Assembly: GCA_016209715.1 (NCBI GenBank)
Contig: JACQVP010000014.1
Span: 1-58,993 of the forward strand
Direction: 5' to 3'
Source of the DNA: Candidatus Omnitrophota bacterium
Lineage (GTDB): Bacteria; Omnitrophota; Omnitrophia; Omnitrophales; Omnitrophaceae
Length of the DNA stretch: 58,993 nucleotides
Position numbers and translations under genes: made by a program. How positions within the stretch are numbered: the stretch's first letter is position 1; each line of letters starts with the position of its first letter. This document shows positions 16,607 through 52,172 of the stretch, one piece after another. The notes under the pieces were generated by a model, which made no database searches, was not told where the DNA came from, and saw nothing but the letters and a program-made list of their open reading frames with translations.

Positions 16607-16616
16607 TTCCGGCCAA

Positions 16617-32009: not shown

Positions 32010-32031
32010 CAAAGTCCCTCTTAGCTGTGCA

Positions 32032-32074: not shown

Positions 32075-32082
32075 AAGGGTCC

Positions 32083-32130: not shown

Positions 32131-32156
32131 CGGCGGCTCAATCAGCCACCTAATAC

Positions 32157-36100: not shown

Positions 36101-39100
36101 CGCGCACATGATCGCGCACGGCCTGTTCGCGGCGGGCATGCAAGAGCGGATCGGATTCGGCCTCGTGATCGGGCTGGCCGCCTCGGGCGGAGTCAGCTTC
36201 CTGAGAGACGTATTTTACGGATTCCGCGGCCAGGGCGGGGTTCAGAGCTGGCGGCTTTATCTGGTGGATTCCCTGCTCGGGGCCTTCGTGGGGTGCGCGG
36301 TGGCCTTCTACCTCGATGCCCGCCAGGTCCCGGTCATCCTGGAAAAATTCAAGCTTTACACCTCCGCCGGTTTCGACGCGGTCGATTACATCACTTACCC
36401 GCTCTTGAACAAATGGGGCCGCATCGACCTCGGCACTTACGCGGGCGGCGTGAAACTTTTGTACACCGAATCTCTCGCCGGCGTCATCAATTGGTCCATC
36501 GCGGCCTGGCTCTTCGCCATCAACAAAGTCTTCATGCAGGCCTTTTTCGACAAGGACAAGACCCCCATCAAGTTTTTCTTCTCCAAGGAAGGCTTCGCCA
36601 CCCTCATCGAGCACATGATCTACGTCCTCCGGTGGGGGCTCTGGATGTCCCCGATCATTTTCACTTTCCTCCGGATGATGCCCGAGGCCACCTGGTACAA
36701 CCAGGACGGCGCGATCCGCACCGTGTTCGCGATTTATCAAAACGCCACCCTGTCTCCGGAGGCCTTCCAGCAGTGGAGCCTTCAGGTTTTCGTGTACATC
36801 CTGGCCTTCGACTTCTTCCGCATCCTGATCTGGATGGACCACATGGGCCTGCGCGTGGCCACGCTCGTCAATTTGAGCTTCCTCGGGATGGACAAGCTGG
36901 ACGAAAAGATTTCCCGCTTCATCGGCCCGGCCGCGGCGCAACGTTATATCCCCGAAGGCGTGAAACGCTTCACCACGTGGGCGCCCCTGCTGATCCCGTT
37001 CTATCTCCCCCGCGGCGACGATTGGAACTATGTCTGGAACACCGCCGAGGCCATGCAAAACGCCGGGCGCGGCCGCGGCTTGGTTTCCTTCCTCCAATCT
37101 CTCTCGCTTCCGCAAATGGCGCTCTTGATCGCCTGCGCCGTCGCGGTCGCCACCGCCGTTTCTTATGCCGCGCGCGAACTGAGCCGCCGGGCGAGAAAGC
37201 GGCGCCTGGCCACGTTCGAGCTGGAGAACCGCGAATATCGCGTCGTGGTGAAGGAAAACGGCGAGGCCTACAGCGAGGTGCTCTCCAAGGAATTTTTTGA
37301 CCTCACCCGCCGCGCTTACGACCTGATCGATCCCTGCGGGCGCATTCTCTTCCTTCTGGACACCAAGGAAGCCCCCCGCGCGCCCCGCCGCTTTTGGCCG
37401 GTCGTCGGCAATTTTCCGCGGGACATGTTCGACGCCTCGCAAATCGAGAAGGGCGACGGCACCGTCAAATTCACGAACGAGAATCACGGCGTGCGAACCA
37501 CTGTGGAAATGAGACTCCCGGACCTCGACAGCACCGCGGAGGTCTGGACGGTCACCGTTGAAAACATGACCGCAAAACAGCGCGAGTTGAAAATGGTCCC
37601 TTATCTCGAGTGGGTCCTGAACGGATGGATCCACGACCGGTTTCACACGCAGTACGCGCGGCTGTATCCCGAGATGGAATACAAGGCCGGCGCGAACGCG
37701 ATCCTGACCTGGCAGAAGGCCACCAAATCCATGGGCTTCCTGGCCTCCGATGTCGCCCCGCAGGGGTTCCTCTCTTCCCGCATGGATTTCATCGGCCGGG
37801 CGCAGAGCATCTGGGCGCCCCGGATCTTCGACACGCTCGCGTTTTCGGAAGCGCGCGACACGGCCGGCTACCCGACGTTCGATCCCATCGGCAGCCTCCT
37901 GATCCATTTGACCCTGCAGCCGAAATCTTCGAAGACCGTGCGCTTCATCGTCGGACACGCCAAAAACAAAGACGCGGCGCTGGGCCTGATCCGTAAGTAC
38001 CTCAATCCGGTCCCGGCCGAGACGGCGCCTTCCGGTCCCGCCAAGAAGAAATATCCCCTGATCGGGCACGGCGAAATCTTGCCGGGCACGCCGCAGCCGT
38101 ATTCGGAATTCATCGACGAGGGCCGGAAATTGCTCGTCCGCACGCCTTTCACCACCCGGCCGTACGACCACGCGCTCTCCAACGCCATCCACTCGGTGAT
38201 GGTCACCAATCGCGGCCTGCACACGTCCTGCAACGGCAATTCGCAGCAAAACCGCCTCACGCCGGACTGGCCGGACACGGTGACGAAGGAAATCCCGACG
38301 GAAGCCATTTATCTGCATGACCCGGAGACGCGGGAATGGTTTTCCCCGACCTACCATCCCCTGAACAAACCCAACGCGCAGTTCGAGTCCGAGTTCGGCG
38401 TCGACGGAACCGCCATTTTCCGCATGACCGAGGGCTCCCTGTCGACGCGCCTCACCGTGTTCGTGCCGGTGGACGACCCGGCCGGCGTCTATTATTTGAC
38501 CGTGAAAAACAATTCCGACCGCTCCCGCAGGCTCCGGGTGTCGCCTTATTTCCAAATGGTCCTCTCCTTTCAACCGGAGCGCTCGGGGACACTCAGCGTG
38601 AAACACGACCGCGACACCAACGCCCTCTTCTTCGAAAACCCGCGCAACATGTTCCGCACGGGATGGGCCTTTGCCTCCATGTCGCTCCCGGCCGAGCAGG
38701 TGGAGACCAAGCGGGGCCGCTATTTCGGTTCGGACCGCGGCACCATCCATCCTTTCCTGGTGGAGCAGGGCCGCCCGGACGAGACCCAACTGTGGGACGA
38801 CCGCCAGGTGGCCGCCTTTGTCGGGACCTTGGAAGTCCCCGCGCGCGGGGAGGCTTCGGTCGCTGTGGTCCTGGGGCAGACGGACCGGCGAGACGAGGCG
38901 CAGAAATTGGTCCGCAAGTACAAAGACCTCGAGACCGCCAAGACCGCGCTGGCCCAGACCCAGCAATGGTGGCTCAATCTGATGAACACGGCGCAAGTGG
39001 AGACCAACCGTCCCGAATTCGACCGCCTGCTTCACTGGCTCAAGTACCAGGCCCTCGCCGAGCGCATCTGGGCCCGCCGCGGGTTTTACCAAACGAGCGG

Positions 39101-40481
39101 CGCCTTCGGGTTCCGCGACCAGCTGCAGGACACGGTCAACATGATCTGGGTGGACCCTTCCCTGGCCCGCAAACAAATCATTCTCCATGCCTCCCAGCAA
39201 TTCGTCGAGGGAGACGTCTTTCACTGGTTCTTCACCCTGACGGACGGGCGCACGGCCTTCTCGTGCCGCTCCCATGCCTCGGACAATCCCGTGTGGCTGC
39301 CGTGGGCCGTGGTCGAATACGTGCGCGGCACCGGCGATTATTCGGTCCTGGACGAAATGGCCTCTTACGTCGTTTCCGAATTTCCCTTTGCGCCCCTTCC
39401 CAAAAACAAGCAGGGCTGGGGCCATTTATACCACCGTTCCACCCGCGCCGATTCCATTTACCGGCACTGCATGAAATCCATCGACCTGGTCCTCAACCAT
39501 CGCATGGGCAAGCACGGCCTCCCGCTGATCCAGACCGGCGACTGGAACGACGGCCTGGACGAGATCGGCAGCGAAGGCCACGGCGAAAGCGTCTGGCTCG
39601 GGTTCTTCCTCTACTACATCTTGAAGCACATCCTCCCCGTCATCGAAGTGAAGGAAGGCGGGGCCAGGAAGGAGCATTACACCCGCAGGATGAAAGACCT
39701 CGGCGCCGCGCTCGAACGCACCTGGCGGGGAGACCGTTACCTGCGCGCCATCCACGACGACGGGACGGAAATCGGGGTCAAGGACAGCGGCGTCTGGGAA
39801 ATCGACGCCCTCACCGCGGCGTGGGCAGTGATCTCGGGCCTCAATCTCGAACGCGGCCTCATCGTTTTCAACACCGCTTTGCATGTGCTCGAGAAGGAGA
39901 ACGCGGTCCTGCTCGGCTGGCCGGCGCTCCGGGAGGACACCAAGCCTTATTTGGGCCGCAGCAGCAAATATCCGGAAGGGGTCCGCGAGAACGGCATGTA
40001 CTGCCACGGCGTGCAATGGCTCGTGCGCGCGGCCCGAATCCTGGCCGAAGAATTCGACAAGGACGGGGACCGGGCCAAGGCCGACGAATACCGCGAAACG
40101 GCCTACCGCCTGTGGCTGAAGGTCTCCGCCATTCCGCACACCGAAGGAAAGGAAATTGAAATCTACGGCGGACAGCCCAACAAGCAGTCGGCGGACATCC
40201 TCACCAACTTCGACCAGGGCCGCATGATTTGGCACGGTTACACGGGCGCGGCCGGCTGGATGCTGCGCCAGGCGTTCGAAGGAGTGGTCGGCGCCGCCTT
40301 GTCCAAGAACCACCTCATCCCGCCCAAGGACCTGGACAAAAATCGCGGAAACTTGAAAGTGAACCGCGTGCACCGTGATCTCGACGTCCTGAAATCCGCC
40401 GGGAACGCGTTCAAACGTTCGTCGAAAGTACAAGTCGAGCCGCCGGCATGGGCGGCAGACAGCCATTCTAAAAGGAGGTAA
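33171..40481 (+). CDS. 2436-aa membrane protein: signal peptide, three beta-sandwich-like repeats, about 20 TM helices and a tandem GH94-like (cyclic-glucan-synthase C-terminal-like) phosphorylase region
   Basis: Uninterrupted ORF. Repeats at about aa 42-183, 229-376 and 391-553. Hydrophobic block at aa 560-1335. GH94-type blocks: TRPYDHALSN...NGNSQQNRLTPDW, FGFRDQLQD and QTGDWNDGLDE. An alternative ATG at 33186 has a better GGATGGA spacer. Confidence 0.85.
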   Translation: MEKKPMRLNFHFHKSHSVRRVLLLSFFFLLPFSSLNSYAADSFHVLDAADRGAEASEPGRASTLAGYDETRKQDVIELNYSLPANGTASFWAKNFPAGLEPESVGTVEISVKTADAAEQEQISVTLDLNGSAGTQSFPIELKTGWTSRTEIIDWPTLGKLEELRLDLKAAAPAEGTLTFTISFKPAPAPAPAAPAVEVTAPASSAPEPAAEPETEDAEAPAPKPEVVPAAWTLFDAGQRGVDMSGNAAGGIMPTFDEAANKDVLEFDYTLSEGDSIKVWAREFPSTLSSATANASKISVRVIEPGQAETISASLEIQGSAGAQSVPLILKSGWNSSLNAVNWDETGDLREAALALAPAPGQKSAKGTLNVAVDFVRLADLNLLRSSGQTAACSLFDAGEKGVFNIGSSKGLITGAFNEQLGKDVWAFEYSLPDASVVGIWTKSYPADLNAAAADAVRVGVQVPDSNQLTQVSVKLEIKGESGMQTIPLSLKPGYNSVAERINWGTIGALTEVVFVVSPMAVGPLVVSPVGLSPMENKEPINGTLYFDLEFGRLSFMQKNATLIKVALILLVGLLASLGTFVASRTFRRETARATAPEENTGRSPAGRDFFYGAMAVLIAGVAIYIYSLNSISPLDGAFHLGFAGVALTGIVISALLKKHLTGECLSAGEVFQNFTACGLLAIATSKQEILQAPSSWVQIFQFSGMVAAVTFSIYQFSNARSLAVSRRHLGPVSCALIVGTPYLFNWLLLVENANFLQTLINALTVHLLAAWPPVLEFLGRLLVIFLFNEAVTNGISLSTKGRLLKSGLAHAVIFGVSAGVVVSPYIADLGSLPAVGALAAPLRALVAILTTVLSFAGLWGEVYLLTGISLDGGHSKAPSQESILNHVNIGVRKGMAYSGILTAILYVLFIVFDARAAQAFMARFPLPIGILAGGLIFPFVKTIIETFDGSLPFFERTRFSYRDPVLYFRGAIVGFGFAHMIAHGLFAAGMQERIGFGLVIGLAASGGVSFLRDVFYGFRGQGGVQSWRLYLVDSLLGAFVGCAVAFYLDARQVPVILEKFKLYTSAGFDAVDYITYPLLNKWGRIDLGTYAGGVKLLYTESLAGVINWSIAAWLFAINKVFMQAFFDKDKTPIKFFFSKEGFATLIEHMIYVLRWGLWMSPIIFTFLRMMPEATWYNQDGAIRTVFAIYQNATLSPEAFQQWSLQVFVYILAFDFFRILIWMDHMGLRVATLVNLSFLGMDKLDEKISRFIGPAAAQRYIPEGVKRFTTWAPLLIPFYLPRGDDWNYVWNTAEAMQNAGRGRGLVSFLQSLSLPQMALLIACAVAVATAVSYAARELSRRARKRRLATFELENREYRVVVKENGEAYSEVLSKEFFDLTRRAYDLIDPCGRILFLLDTKEAPRAPRRFWPVVGNFPRDMFDASQIEKGDGTVKFTNENHGVRTTVEMRLPDLDSTAEVWTVTVENMTAKQRELKMVPYLEWVLNGWIHDRFHTQYARLYPEMEYKAGANAILTWQKATKSMGFLASDVAPQGFLSSRMDFIGRAQSIWAPRIFDTLAFSEARDTAGYPTFDPIGSLLIHLTLQPKSSKTVRFIVGHAKNKDAALGLIRKYLNPVPAETAPSGPAKKKYPLIGHGEILPGTPQPYSEFIDEGRKLLVRTPFTTRPYDHALSNAIHSVMVTNRGLHTSCNGNSQQNRLTPDWPDTVTKEIPTEAIYLHDPETREWFSPTYHPLNKPNAQFESEFGVDGTAIFRMTEGSLSTRLTVFVPVDDPAGVYYLTVKNNSDRSRRLRVSPYFQMVLSFQPERSGTLSVKHDRDTNALFFENPRNMFRTGWAFASMSLPAEQVETKRGRYFGSDRGTIHPFLVEQGRPDETQLWDDRQVAAFVGTLEVPARGEASVAVVLGQTDRRDEAQKLVRKYKDLETAKTALAQTQQWWLNLMNTAQVETNRPEFDRLLHWLKYQALAERIWARRGFYQTSGAFGFRDQLQDTVNMIWVDPSLARKQIILHASQQFVEGDVFHWFFTLTDGRTAFSCRSHASDNPVWLPWAVVEYVRGTGDYSVLDEMASYVVSEFPFAPLPKNKQGWGHLYHRSTRADSIYRHCMKSIDLVLNHRMGKHGLPLIQTGDWNDGLDEIGSEGHGESVWLGFFLYYILKHILPVIEVKEGGARKEHYTRRMKDLGAALERTWRGDRYLRAIHDDGTEIGVKDSGVWEIDALTAAWAVISGLNLERGLIVFNTALHVLEKENAVLLGWPALREDTKPYLGRSSKYPEGVRENGMYCHGVQWLVRAARILAEEFDKDGDRAKADEYRETAYRLWLKVSAIPHTEGKEIEIYGGQPNKQSADILTNFDQGRMIWHGYTGAAGWMLRQAFEGVVGAALSKNHLIPPKDLDKNRGNLKVNRVHRDLDVLKSAGNAFKRSSKVQVEPPAWAADSHSKRR

Positions 40482-40489: not shown

Positions 40490-40711
40490 ATGAAGACGTT
40501 GAGGAATACCGGGTCGGCCGCGCTTTTGGCCTTGGGGCTGGCCGTTTTCGCGGGGGGAACCGCCGAAGCCAACCACCACCTGGAATGCTGCAAGTATGAA
40601 GGCAAGAAATCTCTCACCCAGAGAGAGCTTCCGGAAGCCCAGAACGAGATCGTGATGATGCGCGTCCAACAAATGGAACGGGCGCAAAAGGAAGCCGGCG
40701 CCGCGCTTTAA
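40490..40711 (+). CDS. Small secreted protein (73 aa) with an HHLECC motif
   Basis: GGAGG 12 nt upstream of the ATG (inside the end of the giant ORF) and a signal peptide ending GTAEA-NHH. Its stop overlaps the convergent stop of the Ehr small-subunit gene. Confidence 0.45.
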   Translation: MKTLRNTGSAALLALGLAVFAGGTAEANHHLECCKYEGKKSLTQRELPEAQNEIVMMRVQQMERAQKEAGAAL

Positions 40712-41616
40712 TTCCCCGGCGCTCCGGCTTTGCCGAGCGCCACGAAGATCCCGTACAGAATCGCCTCCGGACGGGGCGGACAGCCCGGAATATAAACGTC
40801 GACCGGCACCGCCTGGTCCACCCCTCCCGAGACCGCGTAACTGCCCCGGAAGATCCCCCCGCTCACGGCACAACCCCCGCAAGCCACCACTGATTTAGGA
40901 GAAGGCATCGCCGCGTAAGTCTTCACCAGCGCCAGTTCCATCTGGCGGGTCACCGGCCCCGTCACGAGCAGCAGGTCCGCGTGCCGGGGCGAGGCCACGA
41001 AGTGGATTCCGTATCGTTCGGCATCATAAAGCGGGGTTGACAGATTGGTGATTTCCACTTCGCAGCCGTTGCAGGAGCCCGCGTCGACCTCGCGGACATG
41101 CAGCGACCGGCCGAAGAGCGCGCCGATCTTGTCTTTGAGCTTCCTCCCCAGGTCCTCGAGCGGGAGTCTGTCGGCAAAGTCTCCCTGCTCGTAATTCGGA
41201 TGGCGCGCACGCGCCGCCGCCGGCGGAAAATTCTTTTCCGGAGCTACGAACCGGGGGTCCTTAACGGTCTCGGACAGCCGGAACTCGAATGGCCGCGCGA
41301 GCGCGTCGCGGGAAGGCGCCGCCAGTTCAAATTTCCCCCGGAAGGAAATGGCCTCGTACGGGCAGGCCGGTCCGCAAAGACCGCAAAAGATGCAGTCGCC
41401 GTAATCCAGGACCAGCGTCCGGCGGTTCTCCTTCTGATCGTCCGAGACCGAAAGCGCGTCCGTGGGGCACGCCGCGACGCATTGGCCGCAGCCCGTGCAT
41501 TTGGCGGCGTCGATCTCAGGAGCCCCCGCGAAGCCTAACGGCGCCTCCGTCTGTCCCGGACAATACGAGGGCGCGGGCCTCCCGCTCTGGAAATTTTTTT
41601 TCAGGATCCTCAGCAT
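40708..41616 (-). CDS. Fused 2x[4Fe-4S] ferredoxin (HyfH/NuoI-like) and NuoB/HycG-like small subunit
   Basis: N-terminal CTGCGQCVAACP and CIFCGLCGPACP. C-terminal GSCNGCEVEI, ACGGCAVSGG and IPGCPPRPE (N2/proximal cluster ligands). Confidence 0.85.
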   Translation of the reverse strand: MLRILKKNFQSGRPAPSYCPGQTEAPLGFAGAPEIDAAKCTGCGQCVAACPTDALSVSDDQKENRRTLVLDYGDCIFCGLCGPACPYEAISFRGKFELAAPSRDALARPFEFRLSETVKDPRFVAPEKNFPPAAARARHPNYEQGDFADRLPLEDLGRKLKDKIGALFGRSLHVREVDAGSCNGCEVEITNLSTPLYDAERYGIHFVASPRHADLLLVTGPVTRQMELALVKTYAAMPSPKSVVACGGCAVSGGIFRGSYAVSGGVDQAVPVDVYIPGCPPRPEAILYGIFVALGKAGAPGN

Positions 41617-41634
41617 CGGATTCTATCTCCCCGT

Positions 41635-43212
41635 TCAGCGGTCATTGCCGGAATACGAAAGGTTCAGGCTCTTGTTGATCACCGGAAAGTCCGGCACGAT
41701 GTTCTCGAGAACCGCGTACTCGATAAGCGGCCAATTGGCGAAAGAGGGCGATTGAATCTTCCAGCGGCTGATCTTGCCCTCCCGGTCCGTCGAAAGCCAA
41801 TGGAAGCACTCGCCCCGCGGCGACTCGACCCCTCCCAGGGCATGAGCCATCGGCGCCAAAGGCCGCGGTACGGCCAGGCAGGGCCCCGGCGCGAGACCCG
41901 CGGCGACTTCGTGGATGAGCTTGAAGCTCTCGTAGATTTCCTGGATCCTGACTTTAAGCCGGGACTCGACGTCACCTTCCGCGAACACGGGCACCATGAA
42001 AAAGAGCTGTGAGTAGACGCCGTACGGATGATCGCGCCGGAGGTCGCGATCGACGCCCGAGGCCCGCGCCGCGGGGCCTGTGCCGCCGAGCGCTTCGGCG
42101 ATTTCCCTGCGGATGATCCCCGTTTCCTCCACCCGGTCGAGAAAGGAACTCGAATTCCAGATGATGTGGACGATCTGCTCGAAATCTTTCTTGATGGCTT
42201 CCGTTTCCCGGAGCAGATGATCCAAGGCGCCGGCCGCGAAGTCCTTGTGCACGCCCCCCGGTACGATCATGGACCGCAGGAGCCGCTGTCCCGTGAGCCT
42301 TTCGTTGAGCCGCAGGAGCCGCTCCTTGACCGCCGCCAACTGGGCCGCTCCGAAGCTGAAGGCCACGTCGAGAACGACGCCCGAAATATCGGCGACGTGG
42401 TTGTAAAGCCTTTCCAGTTCGAGCAAGATGACCCGCAGGCGGAGCGCCCGTTCGGGCACCGTCGTCCCGCTGAGAGCTTCCAGCGCCTGCGCGCAAGCCG
42501 CCGCATGCGACACCGAATTGTCGCCGGAGACCCTTTCGGCGAGGCATAGAATTTCCCGCGGGCTTTTTCCCTCGCCCAGTTTTTCGATCCCTTTGTGGGT
42601 GTAAAAAAGGCGGATCTCGAGCTTCAGGATGCTTTCCCCCGCCGATGAAAACCGGAAATGGCCCGGCTCGATCACCCCCGCGTGAACGGGCCCCACGGGG
42701 ATTTCGAAGACGCCGGCGCCTTCCACCCGCTCGAACGGGTAATCGCCCTGGCGGCGCGGGACTTTTACGCCGTTGGGGAAATCCTTGCGGAGCGGATATT
42801 GGCCGGCGGGCCAGTCCTCGTGCAAAACCAGACGCCGGGGATCCGGGTGACCGGACGGTTTGAGCCCGAACAAATCCTGGATCTCGCGCTCCTGCCAATT
42901 GGCCTGGGGATACAACGACACGACGGAGGGAAAGGAAGCCTCCGTTTCCCCCGCCTGCACCGCCAGGGCCAGGAACCGGTCTTCGCGCGGATGGGCGAAC
43001 GCATAACGCAGGCGGAAGCCCCCTCCCGACTTCCGTTCGTCAAATCCGGCCAGGAATAGAAAGCGCATCTCGAGGACGCGGGCCATGAATTCCGCCGCCG
43101 CGGGCAGGACTTCCGGCGCAACCGAGACCGATGTCAGACGGCCGGTCTCGGCGCGTTCGCCGTACACGGACTTGCCAAACTGTTGCTTCAAACGTTCGAT
43201 CTCAGGGGTCAT
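41635..43212 (-). CDS. NuoC-NuoD / HycE-like large subunit lacking all NiFe-binding cysteines (Ehr type)
   Basis: NWQEREIQDLFG (NuoC), then GPVHAGVIEPGHFRF and FYTHKGIEK (HycE/EchE-like). The L1 position reads ERVSGDNSVSH instead of R-x-C-G-x-C-x3-H. The C-terminus reads NLSYSGNDR-stop instead of D-P-C-x2-C-x2-R. The start is trimmed to the ATG at 43212. Confidence 0.85.
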   Translation of the reverse strand: MTPEIERLKQQFGKSVYGERAETGRLTSVSVAPEVLPAAAEFMARVLEMRFLFLAGFDERKSGGGFRLRYAFAHPREDRFLALAVQAGETEASFPSVVSLYPQANWQEREIQDLFGLKPSGHPDPRRLVLHEDWPAGQYPLRKDFPNGVKVPRRQGDYPFERVEGAGVFEIPVGPVHAGVIEPGHFRFSSAGESILKLEIRLFYTHKGIEKLGEGKSPREILCLAERVSGDNSVSHAAACAQALEALSGTTVPERALRLRVILLELERLYNHVADISGVVLDVAFSFGAAQLAAVKERLLRLNERLTGQRLLRSMIVPGGVHKDFAAGALDHLLRETEAIKKDFEQIVHIIWNSSSFLDRVEETGIIRREIAEALGGTGPAARASGVDRDLRRDHPYGVYSQLFFMVPVFAEGDVESRLKVRIQEIYESFKLIHEVAAGLAPGPCLAVPRPLAPMAHALGGVESPRGECFHWLSTDREGKISRWKIQSPSFANWPLIEYAVLENIVPDFPVINKSLNLSYSGNDR

Positions 43213-44678
43213 CCGCCCGCTCCTTCCACCACCCGCACGGCGCCGTGCAAGAGGTCCTGAAACGGCCCCGGAATATAAATCCCCAGGGACACGATCAAGA
43301 AGAGCCCGATCCAGAGCACTCCGTCCATCCAGCCGTTCCTGGAAGGATGCGGCTCCCGCACCCGCTCGCCCAGCGCCATTTCGCTCAGATGCCTCACAAA
43401 GCCGGCGAAGATCAGCACCAGCAGCGCGATGACGGCCGCCGTCGCCCCGAAATGCCGGCTGGCGAAACCGCCGCTCAGGATGGAAAATTCGCTGACGAAG
43501 ACACTGAAAGGCGGAAGGCCCGCAATGGCGAGGATCCCGGCAAAAAAGACGGTCCCCAGGAACGGGCTGGTCTTCAGGAGCCCCCGCACGCCGCGGATTT
43601 CCTTGGTGCGAAAGTGGTGCAGGATATGGCCGCAGCTGAAAAACAAGAGCGACTTGGTGAAGGCGTGATTGACGATGTGAAGCAGCGCGCCGTAGACCCC
43701 GAAAAACGACCCAAAACCGATCCCCGCCGCGGTGAGCCCCATGTGCTCGACGCTGGAGTAAGCCAGCAGTCTCTTGTAATCGCCCTGCACGAGAATGAAG
43801 GGACAGGCCACCGCCACCGACAGCACGCCGAAGAAGATCAGCAAGCCGTCCGAGAACCCCCCTCCGACCGCCGCCCGCGTCAGAATATGGAAACGGATGA
43901 TGCCCGAAATCGAACAGCTCAAGAGCACGCCCGAAAGGAGCGCGCTCACGGGGCTCGGCGCCTGGCTGTGCGCGTCCGGCAGCCAGGAGTGGAACGGGGC
44001 GAGCCCGGCCTTGGTCCCGTAACCGGCCAGGATGAATACGAACGCGAGTTTCATGATTTGGGGGTCCAGGGTCGCGGCCCGGGACAAAAGCACGGACCAG
44101 TGAAGGAGGTCCTGGCCTTCCCCGCCCCCGCCCGAAGTGGCCGAATAGTAGACCAGGATGATGCCGAAGAGCGCCAGCGCAATGCCGACGGTGCACAGAA
44201 TCAAATACTTCCAGGCCGCTTCGATGGAGCTTTTCTTGTCATCCACGTTGACGAGAAAAGCGGAGGCGAGCGTGGTCCCTTCGATCGCGATCCACATGAT
44301 CCCCAGATTATTGGACAAGACGACGAGCAGCATGCTCAGCAGAAAGAGATGGAAGAAAATGGCGTATCGCTTCAATTTTACGAGAGGGATCGCCAGGTCG
44401 CTTTCCCCAAAAAGATAGCCTGCCGCGTAAACGGCCGACAACAATCCCACGGTCGCGATCAAGAAAACAAACACCGCCGCCAGCGGGTCCAGCAGGATAT
44501 TGCCGCCGAACTCAAAACGCGGCCCCGTCCCCGCCGTCCGGAACACCAGGGCCCAGGCGCATCCGGCCAGCAGGGCCGCGCCGGAGACAAAGACCCATTG
44601 CAGAAATCTCTTCGCCGGCGACAGCACGGCCAGGAGGCCCGAAATCAGAGGGATCACGAGCAGGCAGGCGATTGTCAT
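43209..44678 (-). CDS. NuoM/N (HyfF/HycC)-like antiporter-type membrane subunit
   Basis: 489 aa, about 14 TM helices, and a Mrp/Nuo antiporter-like block FHSWLPDAHSQAPSPVSALLSG. Confidence 0.85.
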   Translation of the reverse strand: MTIACLLVIPLISGLLAVLSPAKRFLQWVFVSGAALLAGCAWALVFRTAGTGPRFEFGGNILLDPLAAVFVFLIATVGLLSAVYAAGYLFGESDLAIPLVKLKRYAIFFHLFLLSMLLVVLSNNLGIMWIAIEGTTLASAFLVNVDDKKSSIEAAWKYLILCTVGIALALFGIILVYYSATSGGGGEGQDLLHWSVLLSRAATLDPQIMKLAFVFILAGYGTKAGLAPFHSWLPDAHSQAPSPVSALLSGVLLSCSISGIIRFHILTRAAVGGGFSDGLLIFFGVLSVAVACPFILVQGDYKRLLAYSSVEHMGLTAAGIGFGSFFGVYGALLHIVNHAFTKSLLFFSCGHILHHFRTKEIRGVRGLLKTSPFLGTVFFAGILAIAGLPPFSVFVSEFSILSGGFASRHFGATAAVIALLVLIFAGFVRHLSEMALGERVREPHPSRNGWMDGVLWIGLFLIVSLGIYIPGPFQDLLHGAVRVVEGAGG

Positions 44679-44679
44679 A

Positions 44680-45342
44680 TCATCCTTTTAACATCGTCAA
44701 TTGATCCATGTCGAGGCCCTCGAAAGCTCCGCGGATCTTAAAGACAAAGACCCCCATGATGATGGCCCCCACCAGAACGTCGAAAAAGATCCCGATTTCA
44801 ACGAGGAGGGGCATCCCGAACGTGGTGGTGACGCCGAGCAGGAAAAGGCCGTTTTCGATCAGGAGAAGCCCCAGCACCTGGGTCAGCGCCTTCTTGCGCG
44901 TGGTCATCATGAACATGCCCAGGAACAGCGTGGCCACCGCAATGGAGACAAACTCCTGGGACAGCGGGGGCTTGATCGCGCGCAGGTTCCCGACCCCGTA
45001 AAACGAGATGAACACGAGGAGCGTCGAAAAAATGAGCGAAAGCGGGATGTTGAGGTAAGTCTCCACATCCCGGCGGATGCCGAGCCGGCGGATCATGCGG
45101 TAAAAGATCTGGGGGATCACGATGGTTTTCAGGACCAGGGTCAGAACGGCCGCGATCAGGACATGAGGAACGCGATGATAGAGGGCGGTGCCGGTGGTGA
45201 TGAGCGCGAGCAGGAACGAATGCAGCGCGTAAAAACGGATGCAGGCGAACAGTTGCGGCGAAACGATGAGCGCCAGCGAAGTCACGAGAAGGAGCATGGC
45301 CACGAAATGCAAGGCCGGCAGCATCCAGGCGGCGCCGGTCAT
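44680..45342 (-). CDS. HyfE/NuoK-like small membrane subunit
   Basis: About 220 aa and 6-7 TM helices. The start is trimmed to the ATG at 45342 (ATGA overlap). The position matches hyfE in hyf-type operons. Confidence 0.6.
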   Translation of the reverse strand: MTGAAWMLPALHFVAMLLLVTSLALIVSPQLFACIRFYALHSFLLALITTGTALYHRVPHVLIAAVLTLVLKTIVIPQIFYRMIRRLGIRRDVETYLNIPLSLIFSTLLVFISFYGVGNLRAIKPPLSQEFVSIAVATLFLGMFMMTTRKKALTQVLGLLLIENGLFLLGVTTTFGMPLLVEIGIFFDVLVGAIIMGVFVFKIRGAFEGLDMDQLTMLKG

Positions 45343-46286
45343 TGCCAGCTTCCCATCATGAGCTGTCCCAGCATCGAAAGGATCGCCAGCGCGTAGGCCA
45401 CCCCGAGCAGGTCCGGGACCCGGAACAGGCGGAGTTTGGCGCAGTGGATCTCGATCCAGCCGACGAGGAGCGCCAGCGAAAGGACTTTGGCGGCGAAGAT
45501 CAGCACCGCCAAGAGCGCCGCCGCCGGCGAAGCGACGCTGAGCGCCGGTGAAGGGATAAAGAAATTCGCCAGAAGCGTCAGGAAAATCAGCTGTTTGATC
45601 TGGTGCGCCCATTCAATCAGCGCGAGATATGGGCCGGAATATTCCAGGACCATGGCCTCATGGATCATGGTGAGTTCCAGATGGGTGGAGGGGTTGTCAA
45701 CCGGAATGCGGCCGCTCTCGGCGATCGCCACGATGAGCATCGCCCCAAAGGCCGGGACCATGAAATAAAGTCCGTCCAGGGGGGCTTCCGCGCTCAGCCG
45801 CGAGGCCATGCCCGAAAGAGACAGCGTCTGCGTGCGGTAAGCCAGCGCAAACAACGTCAGCAAAAAGGCCGGCTCAGCCAGCGAACCCAGGGTCATTTCC
45901 CGGCTGGAACCCATCCCCCCGAATGTCGTCCCGGTGTCGAGAGCCGCCAGCGCGAGAAAAAACTTGCCCAAGGCCAGGAAATAAACGAATACCACGAGGT
46001 CCCCCAGGAACCCAAACAACGGCTCCGCCCCAATGGCGGGAATCATCCACGCCGCGATGACGGTAGAGCAGAAAAGCACGATGGGCATGGCATGAAAAAT
46101 CCACGAGGCCTGGTCCGAAATGACCATGTTTTTACGGAACAATTTGCCGAGATCCGCGTAGGCTTGAACAAGCGACGGCCCCCGCCGGTTTTGCGAGGCG
46201 GCCTTCATTTTCTTGATGAACCAGCCCGAGGCGGGCGCGACCGCCAGGAGGACCAGCCCTTGGAGCAGCGATCCGGCCAGGTTCAT
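45339..46286 (-). CDS. NuoH/HycD-like membrane subunit
   Basis: 315 aa and polytopic. RGPSLVQAYADLGKLFRK and EGESELVAG-like (ESGRIPVDNP..E) blocks are typical of HycD/NuoH. Confidence 0.8.
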   Translation of the reverse strand: MNLAGSLLQGLVLLAVAPASGWFIKKMKAASQNRRGPSLVQAYADLGKLFRKNMVISDQASWIFHAMPIVLFCSTVIAAWMIPAIGAEPLFGFLGDLVVFVYFLALGKFFLALAALDTGTTFGGMGSSREMTLGSLAEPAFLLTLFALAYRTQTLSLSGMASRLSAEAPLDGLYFMVPAFGAMLIVAIAESGRIPVDNPSTHLELTMIHEAMVLEYSGPYLALIEWAHQIKQLIFLTLLANFFIPSPALSVASPAAALLAVLIFAAKVLSLALLVGWIEIHCAKLRLFRVPDLLGVAYALAILSMLGQLMMGSWQ

Positions 46287-48304
46287 AGAAGCCTCACCAC
46301 CAGGACCAGAATGATCGTGGTCAGAAGAATGTAACTCAGATAGAGCTGGATGTGCCCCGTCTGGATTTGCCTGGCCTTTTCCGAGAGGCCGATGATCCAG
46401 CGCGCCAGCGGGCGGTAAAGGACCTCTTCAAACAACGGACGGATCCTCGACTCAAACCGCTGGGCGGTGCGCAGGAGGACGTGGCCTTCATCTTCGACCT
46501 CGACCCGGCGCAGGGGCTGATAAAGAAAAGAAAAGATCCTCCGCAGGGGCTTCGAGTAGCCGGTCGCCGAATACTGCATGCGGTCGGTGATCCGCGAAAA
46601 ACCGCAATCCCAATTGGGTCCGGTCCGCACTTTGAGCTGTTTCAATCTCAGGCGCCGCCAGATCCAAAGGGAGATCGGAAGAACGGCCAAAAGCCCCAAC
46701 CCGGCGGCGGGCATAAAGCGGCCCATCTCGGCCGGTCCGGACACGCAAACGGATTGTCCGGAAGGCAGAAAATCGGCCGGTGCGCCTTCCAAGAGGTCCG
46801 CCGCAACCCGGCTCAGGATCCCCGCTGTCCAGCCTGCACCGGCGGACAAAAGAACGCATCCCGCGGAAAGAACGGCCATGGCCGCTTTCATCCAGCCGTC
46901 CGATTCCCGGGCCTGGGCCGCCTCGGAAGAGCGCGGACTTCCCAGAAAAGTGATGCCGAAGGCCTTGACGAAACACATCGCGGCCAGCGCTCCGGCAAAC
47001 CCGAAAAGTGAAGCCAGGATCGGAAAGAAGAAGCGAGCCGCCAGTCCTTGGAACTGCATGCCCGCGAACAAAGCAATCAAAGTCATCCATTCGCTCACGA
47101 AACCGTTTAGCGGCGGAAGGGCGGAAATCGCGACGCAGCCCGTCAGAAAAAAAGCCGCCGTCGCGGGCATTCGGTGGATCAGTCCGCCCAACCGCTCCAT
47201 GTCCCGGCAATGGACGGCCGAAAAAACTGAGCCCGCGCCCAAAAACAAAAGCCCTTTGAAGAAGGCGTGATTGACCGAGTGGAACAGCGCGGCGATGAGC
47301 GCAAAGCCCGCCCAGGCCGTCCGGCCCGAGGCGGCGAAAAACAACGAGGATCCGATCCCCAGGAAAACAATGCCCATATTTTCGATGCTGCTGTAAGCCA
47401 ACAGGCGCTTGAGATCATGCTCCATGAGCGCGTAGAGGATGCCGATCAGCGCCGATAAAATGCCGGCGCAAAGAATCACTCCGCCCCACCAGGCCTCGAT
47501 CTCCCCTAAAAATTGAAAAAGGAAGCGCAACAGCGCGTAAATCGCGGTCTTGATCATCACGCCTGACATCAGGGCCGAGGCGTGACTGGGCGCCTGCGTA
47601 TGCGCTTCCGGAAGCCAAATGTGCAGCGGAATCATTCCGGCCTTTGTCCCAAGCCCAATCAGGGCGCAGACAAAAACAGCGTTTTTCCAGGCCGGGGCCA
47701 GGGCGGACGCGCTCGCCTGAAAGTCCCGGAACTCAAAGCTCCCGGCGTTCAGAAACAGGGCCAAAAAGGCGATCATGAGAAAAGCGGTCCCCAGGTGCGT
47801 CATCACAAAATATAAGAGGCCCGCCCGGCGGGACTCCTTCTGCTCATGCTCCATGACGACGAACATATAAGAGGTCAACGCCATCACTTCCCAGCTGAGC
47901 AGGAAATAAAAGGCATTGGCAGCCGTGATCACGAGCGCCATGCTGCAAATGAAACTGTTATAGACAAATCCCAAGAAACGCGCGTCCCGATGATGATCTT
48001 TGAGGTAACCGACCGCATAAATGGAAACGGCGGCCGATAGAGCCGACAGGATGAACAGAAACACGGCCGACAGCCGGTCGAGGCGGAGGGTCAGGTTCCC
48101 GAACACGCCTTCCCCCGGGAAAACCCATTCGAACGGAATTCCGCTCGCGAAAACGAAAAGGGCGCAGGCCAGGCCGAGCATGGAACCGATGCCCGCCGCG
48201 AGGTGGCTGGCGGCCGAGGCCAAGCGCGTGTTCTTTCCGGAGAGCGCCGGAATGAGCGCCCCGAAGATATAAAATATGAATTGCAGTAAAAACAGGGTTT
48301 TCAT
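46283..48304 (-). CDS. NuoL (HyfB)-like antiporter-type membrane subunit
   Basis: 673 aa with LHIWLPEAHTQAPSHASALMSG and AYSSIENMG blocks. The start is trimmed to the ATG at 48304 (ATGA overlap). Confidence 0.85.
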   Translation of the reverse strand: MKTLFLLQFIFYIFGALIPALSGKNTRLASAASHLAAGIGSMLGLACALFVFASGIPFEWVFPGEGVFGNLTLRLDRLSAVFLFILSALSAAVSIYAVGYLKDHHRDARFLGFVYNSFICSMALVITAANAFYFLLSWEVMALTSYMFVVMEHEQKESRRAGLLYFVMTHLGTAFLMIAFLALFLNAGSFEFRDFQASASALAPAWKNAVFVCALIGLGTKAGMIPLHIWLPEAHTQAPSHASALMSGVMIKTAIYALLRFLFQFLGEIEAWWGGVILCAGILSALIGILYALMEHDLKRLLAYSSIENMGIVFLGIGSSLFFAASGRTAWAGFALIAALFHSVNHAFFKGLLFLGAGSVFSAVHCRDMERLGGLIHRMPATAAFFLTGCVAISALPPLNGFVSEWMTLIALFAGMQFQGLAARFFFPILASLFGFAGALAAMCFVKAFGITFLGSPRSSEAAQARESDGWMKAAMAVLSAGCVLLSAGAGWTAGILSRVAADLLEGAPADFLPSGQSVCVSGPAEMGRFMPAAGLGLLAVLPISLWIWRRLRLKQLKVRTGPNWDCGFSRITDRMQYSATGYSKPLRRIFSFLYQPLRRVEVEDEGHVLLRTAQRFESRIRPLFEEVLYRPLARWIIGLSEKARQIQTGHIQLYLSYILLTTIILVLVVRLL

Positions 48305-49026
48305 TTCACCACCAGGACCGGACAGGCCGCCTCCTCGGCAATGGTGTCGCAGAGCGCCCGAAAACGATGATCCCTCCAGTGATGGGTCTCGCTCGACCCC
48401 ATGATCAGCATGTCCGCGGATGATTCGCGGCACGCCGCCTGAAGGGTTTGCCTCGGTTCGCCGCAAAGGATGCGGTATCGGGCCCTGACTTTCAGCCGGT
48501 GGAATAAATACTCCGCCCGGGCCTGGGCCATCCGGAGGGCCGGCGAGGAAGCGGAGCCCACCGTCACGACCTCGACTGGGGAGCGGCCGCGCTTGCCCAG
48601 CAAGGCCGCCAAGCCGAGGGCCTTTTCGTTGAAACGGCCGCCGATGCAGGCCAGCACGATGTTGCGGATCTCCCGGTCGAAATGACCGGGGATCGCCAAG
48701 ACCGGACAGGGCGCCTCCTTCAAGGCCGTCCTGACGAAGGTTCGCACATTCCCTTCTTTCAGCAGCGCCACATAGTCGTGTCCGCTCTGGAACGACCGCA
48801 GGAGAGCGGGAAACGAATCTTCATAAACGCACTTTTCCCACCGGAACGAACCGTGGTCCGCTTCTTCATTCAGAAAGCGCGAATAAAAATCAATTTTGCT
48901 CGGCCGGTCTTTGAGCCACTCGCCGGAAACCCACCACCGCAGTTCCGCGCCGATCGCTTCCGCGATTTCAATGGAAGCCCGCAGGAATCCCGTGTGACAT
49001 CCGTCCGTGGGGAGAAAAATGGCCAT
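48301..49026 (-). CDS. Universal stress protein (tandem USP-like)
   Basis: C-terminal ADMLIMGSSETHHW...ACPVLVVK USP signature. The start is ambiguous: ATG at 49026 with AGGAGA, or ATG at 49071 without an RBS. Confidence 0.65.
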   Translation of the reverse strand: MAIFLPTDGCHTGFLRASIEIAEAIGAELRWWVSGEWLKDRPSKIDFYSRFLNEEADHGSFRWEKCVYEDSFPALLRSFQSGHDYVALLKEGNVRTFVRTALKEAPCPVLAIPGHFDREIRNIVLACIGGRFNEKALGLAALLGKRGRSPVEVVTVGSASSPALRMAQARAEYLFHRLKVRARYRILCGEPRQTLQAACRESSADMLIMGSSETHHWRDHRFRALCDTIAEEAACPVLVVK

Positions 49027-49078: not shown

Positions 49079-50251
49079 TCAGGTGGAAAGATGGGCGGGA
49101 ACGCGAGCCCGGCCCTCATCTGCGGACGGCAATAACGTGACCTCTTCGGCTTCGCCTTGCAGGAACCGCTCCGTTTCCAGCCGCGCCTGGGCATCGTCCA
49201 TTTGCCGAGGGGGATGCTTCATATAATAGGCCGATACGCCCTCCAAGGGCCCGCGGAGGCCCCGCTGCCGTGCGATCTTCAGACAGCGGATTGCGTCGAT
49301 GACGATCCCGGCGGAGTTGGGAGAATCCTCGACGGAAAGCCGCAGTTCGATGCTGACGGGAGCTCCCGAGAATCCGCGGCCTTCCATGCGCACGAAACAA
49401 AGCTTATTGTCTTTCTGCCAAGGGACATAATCGGAAGGGCCGATGTGGATATCCTCGTCGGGGAGCCTTTCCGGCAATTGCGATTGCACAGCTTCGGTCT
49501 TGGATATTTTCTTACTCTTCAGACGATCCCGGTTGAGCATGTTCAGGAAGTCGGTGTTGCCGCCCGTGTTGAGCTGGTAAGTCCGGTCCAATTTCACTCC
49601 CCGGTCCACAAAAAGCTTGGTCAGGACGCGGTGCACGATCGTGGCGCCGAGCTGCGATTTGATGTCGTCGCCGATCAGCGGAATGCCTTTCGTCCGGAAG
49701 CGCTCGGCCCAGACGGGATTGCTGGCCACGAAAACAGGCATGCAATTGACCAGGCTCACACCGGCCTCCAGACAGGCCTCCGCGTAAAAGGCGGTGGCCA
49801 TTTCGGAGCCAACCGGCAGATAATTCAACAGGATTTCCGTCTTGGTTTCCCGAAGCCGGCGGACCAGTTGGGCTAATTCAAGGGGTTTCTGCCCCGCCAG
49901 CACGAAGCGACGGGATTCCGGATAATCGTTCATGTGCGCGGACAGGCCGTCCAGCGGATTGCCCATCTCCACCGTCACTCCCTTATCCACGGCAGGATAG
50001 AGCCGCATAGCGCAATTGGGCTCGGCAAATAGTGCCTCTCCCACGGGACGGCCGACCTTGCGCCGGTCAATGTCAACGGCCAGAACCGTTTCAATCTCTC
50101 CCGGAGCGAAACCTCCGATTTCCGGATGCATCAATCCCGGGACCTTCTCCGGAATTCCCCCCTTGAACAAGTCCCGGTAAAGGGCGATGCCCTGCAACAA
50201 GGAGCTGGCGCAATTCCCCACTCCCACGACGGCGATTCTGATCCTAGGCAT
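49079..50251 (-). CDS. ino1: myo-Inositol-1-phosphate synthase
   Basis: IRIAVVGVGNCASSLLQG N-terminal fold and LNRDRLKSKKISKTEAV, typical of archaeal/bacterial MIPS. Confidence 0.8.
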   Translation of the reverse strand: MPRIRIAVVGVGNCASSLLQGIALYRDLFKGGIPEKVPGLMHPEIGGFAPGEIETVLAVDIDRRKVGRPVGEALFAEPNCAMRLYPAVDKGVTVEMGNPLDGLSAHMNDYPESRRFVLAGQKPLELAQLVRRLRETKTEILLNYLPVGSEMATAFYAEACLEAGVSLVNCMPVFVASNPVWAERFRTKGIPLIGDDIKSQLGATIVHRVLTKLFVDRGVKLDRTYQLNTGGNTDFLNMLNRDRLKSKKISKTEAVQSQLPERLPDEDIHIGPSDYVPWQKDNKLCFVRMEGRGFSGAPVSIELRLSVEDSPNSAGIVIDAIRCLKIARQRGLRGPLEGVSAYYMKHPPRQMDDAQARLETERFLQGEAEEVTLLPSADEGRARVPAHLST

Positions 50252-52084: not shown

Positions 52085-52097
52085 ATGGCCTCCCAAA

Positions 52098-52172
52098 TCG
52101 GGGCGAGAGGATTCGAACCTCCGACATCTTGCTCCCAAAGCAAGCGCTCTAGCCAGGCTGAGCTACGCCCCG
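52098..52172 (-). tRNA. tRNA-Pro (anticodon UGG)
   Basis: The minus strand CGGGGCGTAGCTCAGCCTGGCTAGAGCGCTTGCTTTGGGAGCAAGATGTCGGAGGTTCGAATCCTCTCGCCCCGA folds as a cloverleaf with anticodon loop TTTGGGA, GTTCGAATC T-loop and no encoded CCA. Confidence 0.9.

Follow-up and report, generated by a model that had tools for sequence, protein, structure and literature searches.

The stretch of DNA analyzed here, referred to as the window, comprised positions 1 to 58,993 (58,993 nucleotides, nt) of contig JACQVP010000014.1 from the assembly of a Candidatus Omnitrophota bacterium (GCA_016209715.1). On its minus strand, positions 40708-48304 contained six intact, co-directional open reading frames (ORFs) in a hyf-like order, and most neighboring ORFs overlapped. 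A preliminary description made from the letters alone had assigned this region to a hyf-like six-gene module of the energy-converting hydrogenase-related (Ehr) type, and the ORFs and their Pfam and NCBIfam matches supported the module. The six genes were as follows.

46283..48304, minus strand: EhrA (HyfB-like), a NuoL-like, antiporter-type membrane subunit of 673 amino acids (aa); Pfam Proton_antipo_M, 9.8e-58
45339..46286, minus strand: EhrB (HyfC-like), a coupling subunit of the HycD/MbhM/NuoH type, 315 aa; Pfam NADHdh, 6.7e-39
44680..45342, minus strand: EhrC (HyfE-like), a small membrane subunit of 220 aa, assigned from a sub-threshold NCBIfam match and its position
43209..44678, minus strand: EhrD (HyfF-like), a NuoN/M-like, antiporter-type membrane subunit of 489 aa; Pfam Proton_antipo_M, 4.7e-55
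41635..43212, minus strand: EhrL, a NuoC-NuoD/HycE-like large subunit without NiFe ligands, 525 aa; PDB match HycE, 1e-83
40708..41616, minus strand: EhrS, a fusion of a 2x[4Fe-4S] HyfH/HycF-like domain and a NuoB/HycG-like domain, 302 aa; Pfam Fer4 families and Oxidored_q6, 6.8e-34

The HyfB-like protein passed the cut-off of the NCBIfam model for hydrogenase 4 subunit B (710 bits; cut-off, 667), and the HyfF-like protein matched the NCBIfam HyfF model at 6.1e-143, below the cut-off. The HyfE-like protein had no match in the Pfam scan and scored 95 bits (4.5e-27) with the NCBIfam model for the hydrogenase 4 membrane subunit, which was under the curated cut-off of 136; its slot between the HyfC-like and HyfF-like genes was kept in nearly all related loci. 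Coupling by ATGA overlaps had been described as running throughout the operon. Using the letters of the hyf counterparts, we found such overlaps at the B/C, C/E, and F/G junctions and between the upstream universal stress protein (USP) gene and B, but E and F were separated by 1 nt, and the 18 nt between G and HI contained the ribosome-binding site GGGGAGA. Scans for promoters and terminators around the operon yielded nothing above the shuffled expectation. NuoA, NuoJ, NuoK, and NuoE/F/G were not among the six genes, and no nuo-like genes were found elsewhere in the 59-kb window. In line with the preliminary description, none of the approximately 45 scanned ORFs in the window was a hyp or endopeptidase gene.

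When the large subunit was compared with all PDB chains using phmmer, the best match was E. coli HycE (7z0s_E; 1e-83), which aligned over the full length at 33% identity. Weaker matches were observed with Aquifex NuoCD (7.5e-47), MbhL (1.7e-43), Thermus Nqo4 (7.1e-41), E. coli NuoCD (3.5e-40), and MbsL (6u8y_L; 1.9e-32). The alignment revealed no intact CxxC pairs and, with HycE at 1e-83 and the NuoD-type chains at 7.5e-47 at best, the protein did not fall inside NuoD. Three segments of the large subunit were central to the analysis.

42505..42537, minus strand: ERVSGDNSVSH, residues 226-236, the former L1 motif (phmmer alignment to HycE DRVCGICGFAH and MbhL ERMCGICSFSH)
42358..42378, minus strand: VVLDVAF, residues 279-285, with the acidic residue Asp282, near the former active site (comparison of the Cys-less clade with Cys-containing relatives)
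41638..41664, minus strand: NLSYSGNDR-stop, residues 517-525, the former L2 motif and C-terminus (alignment to HycE DPCYSCTDR)

The loss of the four NiFe cysteines, which had been claimed from the motifs, was borne out by an ungapped local alignment to RVCGICGFAH and DPCYSCTDR of HycE. In this alignment, Ser229, Asn232, Ser519, and Gly522 stood at the positions of the first, second, third, and fourth cysteines, respectively. The cleavable C-terminal extension was also absent, and no other cysteine column in Ehr large subunits was more than about 51% conserved across the family. Because all four NiFe ligands were lost, the complex could neither hold the NiFe cofactor nor catalyze H2 turnover, and we concluded that it was very probably not a hydrogenase.

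All four NiFe cysteines were missing in each of the closest 120 homologues (120/120). Nearly all of these proteins had an L1-type ER[IV]SGDNSxxH motif, with a few varying at the Asn/Ser positions, and nearly all had an L2-type [NS]LSYSGND[RML] motif. The first block of homologues was 58-79% identical to the window protein, and its named members were all Candidatus Omnitrophota/Omnitrophica metagenome-assembled genomes (MAGs); the remainder were mostly about 50% identical, and the named members were ANME-2d/Ca. Methanoperedens archaea.

To define the residues that set the Cys-less clade apart, 63 diverse cluster representatives of SGD-type Ehr large subunits were contrasted with 27 Cys-containing relatives. 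Only six positions in the large subunit were at least 85% conserved in Ehr and at most 20% in the Cys-containing relatives: the ligand sites Ser229, Ser519, and Gly522, plus Asp231, Asp282, and Pro489. Asp231 was present in 100% of the Cys-less clade versus 0% of the Cys-containing relatives, Ser519 and Gly522 were 100% conserved in the Cys-less clade, and position 282 was Asp in 90% of the Cys-less clade and mostly Gly in the Cys-containing relatives. The one ligand position of the four outside this set, Asn232 in the window protein, varied in Ehr (N/S/T/E/H). Almost all of the residues that were at least 95% conserved in the Ehr large subunit were conserved in the Cys-containing sisters too, and the hydrogenase-type residues Glu182 (IEPGHF loop), His236, and Arg466 (the PRGE arginine) were kept. 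These comparisons showed that the NiFe pocket was rebuilt from the conserved polar and acidic residues Ser229, Asp231, Asn232, Asp282, Ser519, and Gly522. Because the replacement residues were near-invariant in the 120 close homologues and the 63 diverse representatives, the complex was judged to be under selection rather than decaying.

In the phmmer alignments, Asp282 was matched with the Asp of Nqo4 GLLDLG, Aquifex GALDLG, E. coli NuoCD IQDVG, and MbhL GHDIG. We take the aligned residue in complex I to be the Asp that pairs with the quinone-ligating His (Nqo4 D139). An AlphaFold2 (AF2) model of the large subunit had a predicted local distance difference test (pLDDT) score of 84 and a predicted template modeling (pTM) score of 0.87. 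It matched 7z0s_E best, with a template modeling (TM) score of 0.87, and the fused NuoCD chains were next, with scores of about 0.8.

The small subunit contained a 2x[4Fe-4S] domain (residues 1 to about 140) followed by a proximal-cluster NuoB/HycG-like domain (residues 165-302, approximately). Its PDB matches were HycG (1.4e-42), MbhJ (4.2e-42), 6u8y_J (7.6e-25), and, on residues 2-139, HycF (1.1e-16). All twelve cluster cysteines were kept (40/43/46/50, 75/78/81/85, and 182/185/249/279). Both CxxCxxCxxxCP motifs in the N-terminal domain were intact (C40-C50 and C75-C85), and C182, C185, C249, and C279 aligned with the proximal [4Fe-4S] ligands of HycG and MbhJ, in agreement with the earlier proposal that the cluster ligands were retained and that a ferredoxin domain was fused to the subunit. 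Thus, a three-cluster Fe-S wire was retained. Two residues in this subunit, Glu186 and Glu200, were Ehr-specific.

The membrane arm was similarly well preserved. The best PDB match of the HyfB-like subunit was HycC (2.3e-69), and its charged residues in transmembrane helix 5 (Glu in SWEVMAL, 137-143), helix 7 (Lys in GTKAG, 219-223), helix 8 (His/Lys in HSVNHAFFKG, 342-351), and helix 12 (Glu in VSEW, 403-406) were present. Likewise, the HyfF-like subunit had the Glu of IEGTTL (132-137), the Lys of GTKAG (221-225), HIVNHAFTKS (334-343), and the Glu of VSEF (395-398). The only PDB matches of the HyfC-like subunit below 1e-8 were HycD (3.7e-37) and MbhM (1.9e-24). The loop between its transmembrane helices 5 and 6, AESGRIPVDNPSTHLELTMIHEAMVLEYSG (residues 189-218), was near-identical in Ehr and Cys-containing relatives, with the consensus AE[TS]GRxPVDNPxTHLELTMxHExMxLEYSG, and HyfC Glu225 was Ehr-specific (97%). 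Judging from these sequences, the ion-coupling machinery was unchanged from that of the nearest true hydrogenases and the metal site alone was exchanged. The Ehr-specific changes, which were few in the partner subunits, were acidic gains around the former active site, namely, Asp231 and Asp282 in the large subunit, HyfC Glu225, and the small-subunit residues Glu186 and Glu200.

When 1.84 billion cluster representatives were scanned exhaustively with HMMER, 1,167 proteins matched at E <= 1e-30. The full-length top representatives (n = 116) comprised 84 Cys-less, 27 all-Cys, and 5 intermediate sequences. Four large subunits (P0212, P0243, P0247, and P0258) kept only the first NiFe cysteine (C-G-D-S ... 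A-Y-A-G) and look like intermediates between the Cys-containing and Cys-less forms. In a neighbor-joining tree of the 116 full-length sequences (100 bootstraps), the SGD-type Cys-less sequences formed a cluster with two Cys-containing sequences nested inside; deep nodes had less than 35% support, which was too low to claim a single loss of the cysteines or a placement of the sub-clade that includes the window protein.

A scan of GTDB with one genome per species confirmed at least 597 loci in bacteria and archaea, and the replacement residues (ER[IV]SGDxSxxH and NLSY[SA]GND) were conserved in most of these species genomes. The carriers included Acidobacteriota, Nitrospirota, ammonia-oxidizing archaea, Methanomassiliicoccales, Methanosarcina, Bacillota, Verrucomicrobiota, Rokubacteria/Methylomirabilota, Chloroflexota, Omnitrophota, Saganbacteria, Acetobacterium, and MAGs labeled as candidate phyla radiation (CPR). 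For the comparison of gene order, 86 loci were sampled: the best 80 of the at least 597 loci from the species scan and six loci from contig look-ups. Their large subunits were Cys-less in 75 cases and Cys-containing in 11, and removal of two duplicate contigs left 84 distinct loci (73 Ehr-type and 11 Cys-type). The clade signature S229, D231, D282, S519, and G522 was common to the 63 diverse representatives and 75/86 loci.

The gene order B-C-E-F-G was nearly universal across the related loci. After G, a fused HyfH::HyfI gene was found in at least 25 of the 73 Ehr-type loci and at least 5 of the 11 Cys-type loci; the alternatives were unfused HyfH and HyfI, as in the loci of Methanoperedens and Methanomassiliicoccales, HyfI without HyfH, or HyfI ahead of HyfB. 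The preliminary description had singled out two subunit fusions in the window operon. Both were present, but they were not peculiar to it: NuoC-NuoD is the ordinary form of HycE/HyfG, and the occurrence of HyfH::HyfI in at least 30/84 loci, including Cys-containing relatives, indicated that the fusions were family traits. One Nitrospirota MAG contig (L050, ~3600-18100) carried two complete Cys-less Ehr operons in tandem.

The earliest mention of Ehr concerned Geobacter sulfurreducens (Coppi 2005), and Marreiros et al. 2013 generalized the family; PMC6147122 and PMC7894505 credit these two reports. The family has since been reported in Margulisbacteria, Saganbacteria, comammox and other Nitrospira, ammonia-oxidizing archaea, and the M. 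tuberculosis complex. Ehr is the name in use for the Cys-less clade (PMC7894505, PMC6147122, PMC10284858, and PMC12342949), and HydDB leaves the family out on purpose because it does not metabolize H2. Based on the published definition and the shared features, the window locus was almost certainly a member of the Ehr family. The subunits resembled HycE, HycG, HycD, and HycC, the ligands were lost, and the motif was common to the Cys-less Ehr clade, which agreed with the original assignment as Ehr-type and not a hydrogenase, and the complex had its origin in a group 4 [NiFe] hydrogenase of the Hyf/Hyc type. Ehr and the trait that defines it had been described before; the locus was a new example, and its lineage had not come up in earlier discussions of Ehr.

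The window locus resembled the published description of the G. sulfurreducens Ehr (GSU0739-45) in its NuoL-like EhrA, HyfE-like EhrC, large EhrL, and small EhrS subunits. It shared with the Ehr of Geobacter and of Marreiros et al. a large subunit without the NiFe CxxC pairs and antiporter-like subunits. It differed from the family in nothing essential, and its own traits were the SGDNS...NLSYSGNDR sub-type and the coupled tandem USP gene. By gene order, it could also be compared with M. tuberculosis Rv0081-Rv0087 ("hyc", a predicted formate hydrogenlyase), in which the ArsR-family gene Rv0081 heads a hyc/hyf-like operon. This locus has been called EHR-like (PMC6728331), was judged in the literature to be non-functional as a hydrogenase because hyp genes are absent, and has been linked to the hypoxia response in a USP-rich setting. 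In M. tuberculosis, however, the NuoL-like gene comes after that of the small subunit and a 2x[4Fe-4S] domain has not been reported, whereas in the window genes for malic enzyme, inositol-1-phosphate synthase, and USP lay between ArsR and the operon.

Among solved complexes, E. coli Hyf/Hyc, including the formate hydrogenlyase (FHL) structure 7z0s, provided the best-scoring homologues of every subunit and has the same gene order, B-C-(D)-E-F-G-H-I, and HycE also has a NuoC-like domain fused into the large subunit. In contrast to the window locus, the E. coli systems have the four NiFe cysteines, a cleavable tail, Hyp and HycI maturation, and a docked formate dehydrogenase. Closer in identity (about 41-48%) were Cys-containing sisters from Thermincola, Desulfotomaculum, Desulfosporosinus, Ectobacillus, and others, which have ERxCGxCxxSH ... 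ELCY[AS]CxDR-stop. These sisters shared the operon order, the HyfC coupling loop, the lack of a C-terminal extension, and a frequent HyfH::HyfI fusion with the window locus, but they kept the four NiFe ligands, had Gly at position 282, and lacked Asp231. They probably correspond to HydDB group 4f, and Ehr has been placed next to group 4f (PMC10284858).

The H2-evolving Mbh and the sulfane-sulfur-reducing Mbs of P. furiosus are ferredoxin-driven respiratory complexes; their membrane arm is of the Mrp type, and their L, J, and M subunits are homologous. Mbh differed in having kept the NiFe site; Mbs differed in its much larger Mrp module, and its whole-chain matches to the window locus were weak (6u8y_L, 1.9e-32; 6u8y_J, 7.6e-25). 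Mbs shows that the group 4 scaffold can change substrate. Complex I shared a common ancestor, a cysteine-less large subunit, an Asp at the position of Asp282, and antiporter-like pumps with Ehr. It differed in that its Tyr/His quinone ligands had no equivalent in EhrL, NuoA/J/K/E/F/G were missing from the Ehr operon, and its scores to the window subunits were far weaker than those of hydrogenase subunits.

An "Ech hydrogenase lacking EchD" has been described in Candidatus Methanoperedens (ANME2D_02724 to 02718), with expression values of 52-80 RPKM (reads per kilobase per million mapped reads) and the order EchA, EchB, two unnamed genes, EchE, EchF, and EchC (Arshad et al. 2015). The locus-tag order equaled the HyfB-C-E-F-G-H-I order of two loci from Ca. 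Methanoperedens MAGs (L003 and L004; 4923-12829). The large subunits of L003 and L004 were Cys-less and about 50% identical to that of the window; the loci differed from the window locus in that HyfH and HyfI were unfused and the USP gene was downstream, not upstream. The Methanoperedens "Ech" was probably an Ehr, as judged from gene order and not from sequence identity. If it is the same cluster as in L003 and L004, it is Cys-less and would be unable to evolve H2.

The genes upstream of the Ehr operon formed a tightly packed string on the same strand.

48301..49026, minus strand: tandem USP gene, with an ORF extendable to 49194; Pfam Usp, 2.7e-10
49079-50251, minus strand: myo-inositol-1-phosphate synthase gene, between the malic enzyme and USP genes
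50244-51671, minus strand: ACT-domain malic enzyme gene, between ArsR and Ehr
51740-52138, minus strand: ArsR-family helix-turn-helix (HTH) regulator gene, homologous to the ArsR genes of other loci, at the head of the string

A promoter-like site was observed at 51699-51670, between the ArsR and malic enzyme genes. The likeliest start of the USP gene was 49026 (MAIFLPTDG), not 49194, and its ATGA junction with the HyfB-like gene matched the translational coupling noted in the preliminary description. A USP gene was located beside the related operon in 6/84 other distinct loci, which were of the Methanoperedens type, the Methanomassiliicoccales type, and Terracidiphilus. In the Methanoperedens-type loci the USP gene was coupled downstream, and the Terracidiphilus locus had a tandem USP gene upstream, as in the window. 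With this minority association, USP was rejected as a family-wide partner of Ehr. ArsR-type regulator genes were found directly upstream of the operon, on the same strand and often overlapping, in about 15/84 loci, which is how M. tuberculosis Rv0081-Rv0087 is organized. We also considered ArsR as a metal or persulfide sensor, but the alignment lacked any conserved Cys or His sensor site and the window copy was cysteine-free; therefore, the regulator gave no clue to the substrate of Ehr.

For about 80 loci, the two ORFs closest to the operon on either side were surveyed with Pfam, and no dehydrogenase, formate dehydrogenase (FDH), Hyp, NuoEF, or heterodisulfide reductase (Hdr) gene recurred among these neighbors. 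The only recurrent neighbors were ArsR-type HTH genes (11 members upstream) and USP genes (4 downstream), and no FDH, Hdr, or NuoEF-like gene adjoined the window operon. That the operons stand alone would fit a freely diffusing donor such as ferredoxin. In two Methanomassiliicoccales-type contigs (L005, 4895-17849, and L009), a six-gene cluster of the Ech type was located side by side with an Ehr operon and one or two genes for USP. The Ech-type large subunit kept its C-terminal pair of NiFe cysteines (DPCICCTDR) in both contigs and the L1 motif ERVCGICSYHH in L009. As the two clusters coexist, they are presumably not redundant.

The rest of the window provided context for the host. Minus-strand regions 2012-7242 and 9268-15891 held molybdenum-cofactor genes (MobA, MoaE, MoaD/ThiS-like, MoeA, a MoaC-MoaB/Mog fusion, and MoaA) and adjoining genes for a periplasmic enzyme of the type II dimethyl sulfoxide (DMSO) reductase family (Nar/Nxr/Ebd/Clr type). 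The catalytic subunit of this enzyme (1,154 aa) had a twin-arginine-like N-terminus, the Fe-S subunit was 438 aa long, and the third (gamma) subunit (556 aa) contained an EB_dh heme domain and two cytochrome c domains. The ResB and CcsA genes for system II cytochrome c biogenesis and three cytochrome genes were found at 20527-22637 and 28624-32687 (minus strand); the cytochromes were a 635-aa multiheme c::b561 protein (Ni_hydr_CYTB), a 504-aa NapC/NirT-like multiheme protein, and a 176-aa cytochrome c554-like protein. This was a set for electron export from quinol to the periplasm, resembling those of metal reducers and Methanoperedens, and the uncultured host was respiratory and probably quinone-using.

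Two hemerythrin-domain genes, at 1481-1960 and 16046-16606 (both minus strand), flanked the molybdoenzyme region and may sense or buffer O2 or NO in an otherwise anaerobe-like gene set. A gene at 33171-40481 (plus strand) that converged on the Ehr operon encoded a 2,436-aa protein with GH94 supersandwich and catalytic domains (cyclic beta-1,2-glucan synthase/cellobiose-phosphorylase type) at its C-terminus, repeated domains at its N-terminus, and a long membrane region with multiple passes. The same GH94/Ehr synteny, including a 73-aa secreted-looking ORF (window 40490-40711), was observed on a 78%-identical contig (L006, 3219-10523). Two further minus-strand ORFs, at 22667-24817 (716 aa) and 7630-8790 (386 aa), had no Pfam match at E <= 1e-5 and had coding-like GC content at third codon positions.

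We propose that Ehr is a functional, ferredoxin-linked, reversible ion-translocating oxidoreductase that does not use H2, an overall explanation to which we give a probability of roughly 0.55. A ferredoxin-dependent ion pump is a reasonable proposal because the Fe-S chain is retained and the antiporter and coupling residues are intact. Redox-coupled ion translocation is the likeliest part of the proposal and ferredoxin as a partner is probable, if slightly less so; quinone as the other partner is suggested only tentatively. A low-potential soluble donor, most likely reduced ferredoxin, would feed the fused 2x[4Fe-4S] domain, and electrons would pass on to the proximal [4Fe-4S] cluster in the NuoB-like domain. 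The acceptor would be reduced and protonated at the remodeled pocket, where the large, small, and HycD-like subunits meet. Changes of charge in this acid-lined pocket would then power the translocation of H+ (or Na+) by the membrane arm, in the manner of Mbh, FHL, and complex I. The reaction might also run in reverse, with proton-motive force driving ferredoxin reduction. In the host, the most plausible acceptor would be menaquinone, and the window did encode quinol-linked respiratory proteins (NapC/NirT-like, cytochrome c::b561, and the type II molybdenum oxidoreductase), which we counted in favor of the proposal. A further suggestion, which we consider doubtful, is that the acidic pocket (Ser229-Gly-Asp231, Asp282, and Ser519-Tyr-Ser-Gly522-Asn-Asp) and the Ehr-specific glutamates of the HycD-like and NuoB-like subunits form a new coupling or catalytic site that makes the hydrogenase scaffold a reversible proton pump between ferredoxin and menaquinone (or another membrane carrier).

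Several observations weighed against this proposal. The quinone ligands of complex I had no counterpart in EhrL; the Tyr position was the invariant Gly230 and the His position was Ile181 in IEPGHF (presumably Nqo4 Y87 and H38, respectively), so that EhrL had no quinone site of the complex I type. No complex I NuoH was among the PDB matches of the HyfC-like subunit at E < 1e-8, which weakens the case for a quinone acceptor, and the AF2 model was unreliable at the pocket (pLDDT below 50 for residues 159-207 and 520-525). The HyfH domain was missing in many family members, which have the proximal cluster only; thus, the ferredoxin-docking polyferredoxin was not universal. Methanomassiliicoccales, Acetobacterium, and the CPR-labeled MAGs among the carriers represent lineages that are not known to have quinones. 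Riflemargulisbacteria have also been reported to be without quinones (PMC6349859). The presence of Ehr in quinone-lacking lineages indicated that quinone was not a universal acceptor, and it is for this reason, together with the missing complex I ligands and a coupling subunit that is HycD-like and not NuoH-like, that menaquinone was held to be only tentative. Finally, no substrate has been defined experimentally, and a 2025 survey stated that the Ehr "function remains unknown" (PMC12342949).

The lineages without known quinones (PMC6349859) would fit a different acceptor, namely, a soluble or partner-bound oxidant acting at or near the proximal cluster, such as sulfane sulfur or polysulfide, as in Pyrococcus Mbs, or a docked Hdr-like or FDH module. 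The rebuilt pocket was polar and acidic rather than hydrophobic and the large subunit also matched MbsL, but that match was far weaker than those to HycE or MbhL. An FDH-Ehr pairing has been proposed in the literature for Margulisbacteria and Saganbacteria, and Geobacter Ehr subunits were reported to be more abundant on formate, yet the approximately 80 operons had no recurrent FDH, Hdr, or NuoEF-like neighbor and the window operon adjoined none. We regard a non-quinone acceptor as unlikely. Less likely still is a redox-gated or redox-independent, Mrp-like cation/proton antiporter that serves ion or pH homeostasis under stress without net catalysis and in which the Fe-S cluster(s) are structural or sensing. 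The coupled or adjacent USP genes in the window and 6/84 other loci, the ArsR-type genes upstream in about 15/84 loci and at the head of the window string, and the ArsR-regulated Rv0081-87 locus in the hypoxia/dormancy response of M. tuberculosis would suit such a role, as would the single Fe-S cluster of many members and the uniformly acidic character of the gained residues. However, the strict retention of the twelve Fe-S cysteines and the presence of a 2x[4Fe-4S] input domain in the window and at least 30 other loci are hard to explain without electron transfer, and the hydrogenase proton-relay residues Glu182 and Arg466 were retained.

The remaining explanations were very improbable. For a [NiFe] hydrogenase with misread motifs or alternative metal ligands, one could cite the 33% identity and TM score of 0.87 to HycE and the retained active-site shell (Glu182, His236, and Arg466). 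The alignment of the ligand sites (Ser, Asn, Ser, and Gly) and the lack of a conserved substitute Cys effectively refuted a cryptic hydrogenase, and hyp and protease genes were not found in the 59-kb window, HydDB excludes Ehr as not metabolizing H2, and Nitrospira Ehr was reported not to be induced by H2. A relic hydrogenase operon on its way to loss, or the Q-module of a bona fide complex I, might be suggested by the lost catalytic ligands and by the common automatic annotation of homologues as "NADH-quinone oxidoreductase subunit C." Yet the six reading frames were intact and translationally coupled, the replacement residues were conserved across phyla and both domains, NuoD scores were about 40 orders of magnitude weaker than that of HycE, and the hyf-like order lacked NuoA/J/K/E/F/G; the conservation pattern refuted both a relic and a complex I identity.

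With a signature found in at least 597 species genomes, Ehr is among the most widespread respiratory-type membrane complexes lacking a known function. Nitrifiers, soil Acidobacteriota, methanogens, and methanotrophs are among its carriers, and it has been reported in M. tuberculosis. The comparison presented here defines the residues that replace the NiFe site, shows that two new aspartates became fixed in the Ehr family, and notes that ArsR-type regulators and USPs recur beside Ehr operons. It also suggests that the "Ech hydrogenase" in metabolic models of Methanoperedens cannot make H2. If the acidic pocket of a ferredoxin-linked Ehr does serve as a new site of coupling or catalysis, the complex would be the enzyme so far missing for ferredoxin re-oxidation in Methanoperedens; running in reverse on proton-motive force, it would supply nitrifiers, Acidobacteriota, and metal reducers with reduced ferredoxin. 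In that case, control by USP and ArsR would tie Ehr to electron-acceptor limitation.

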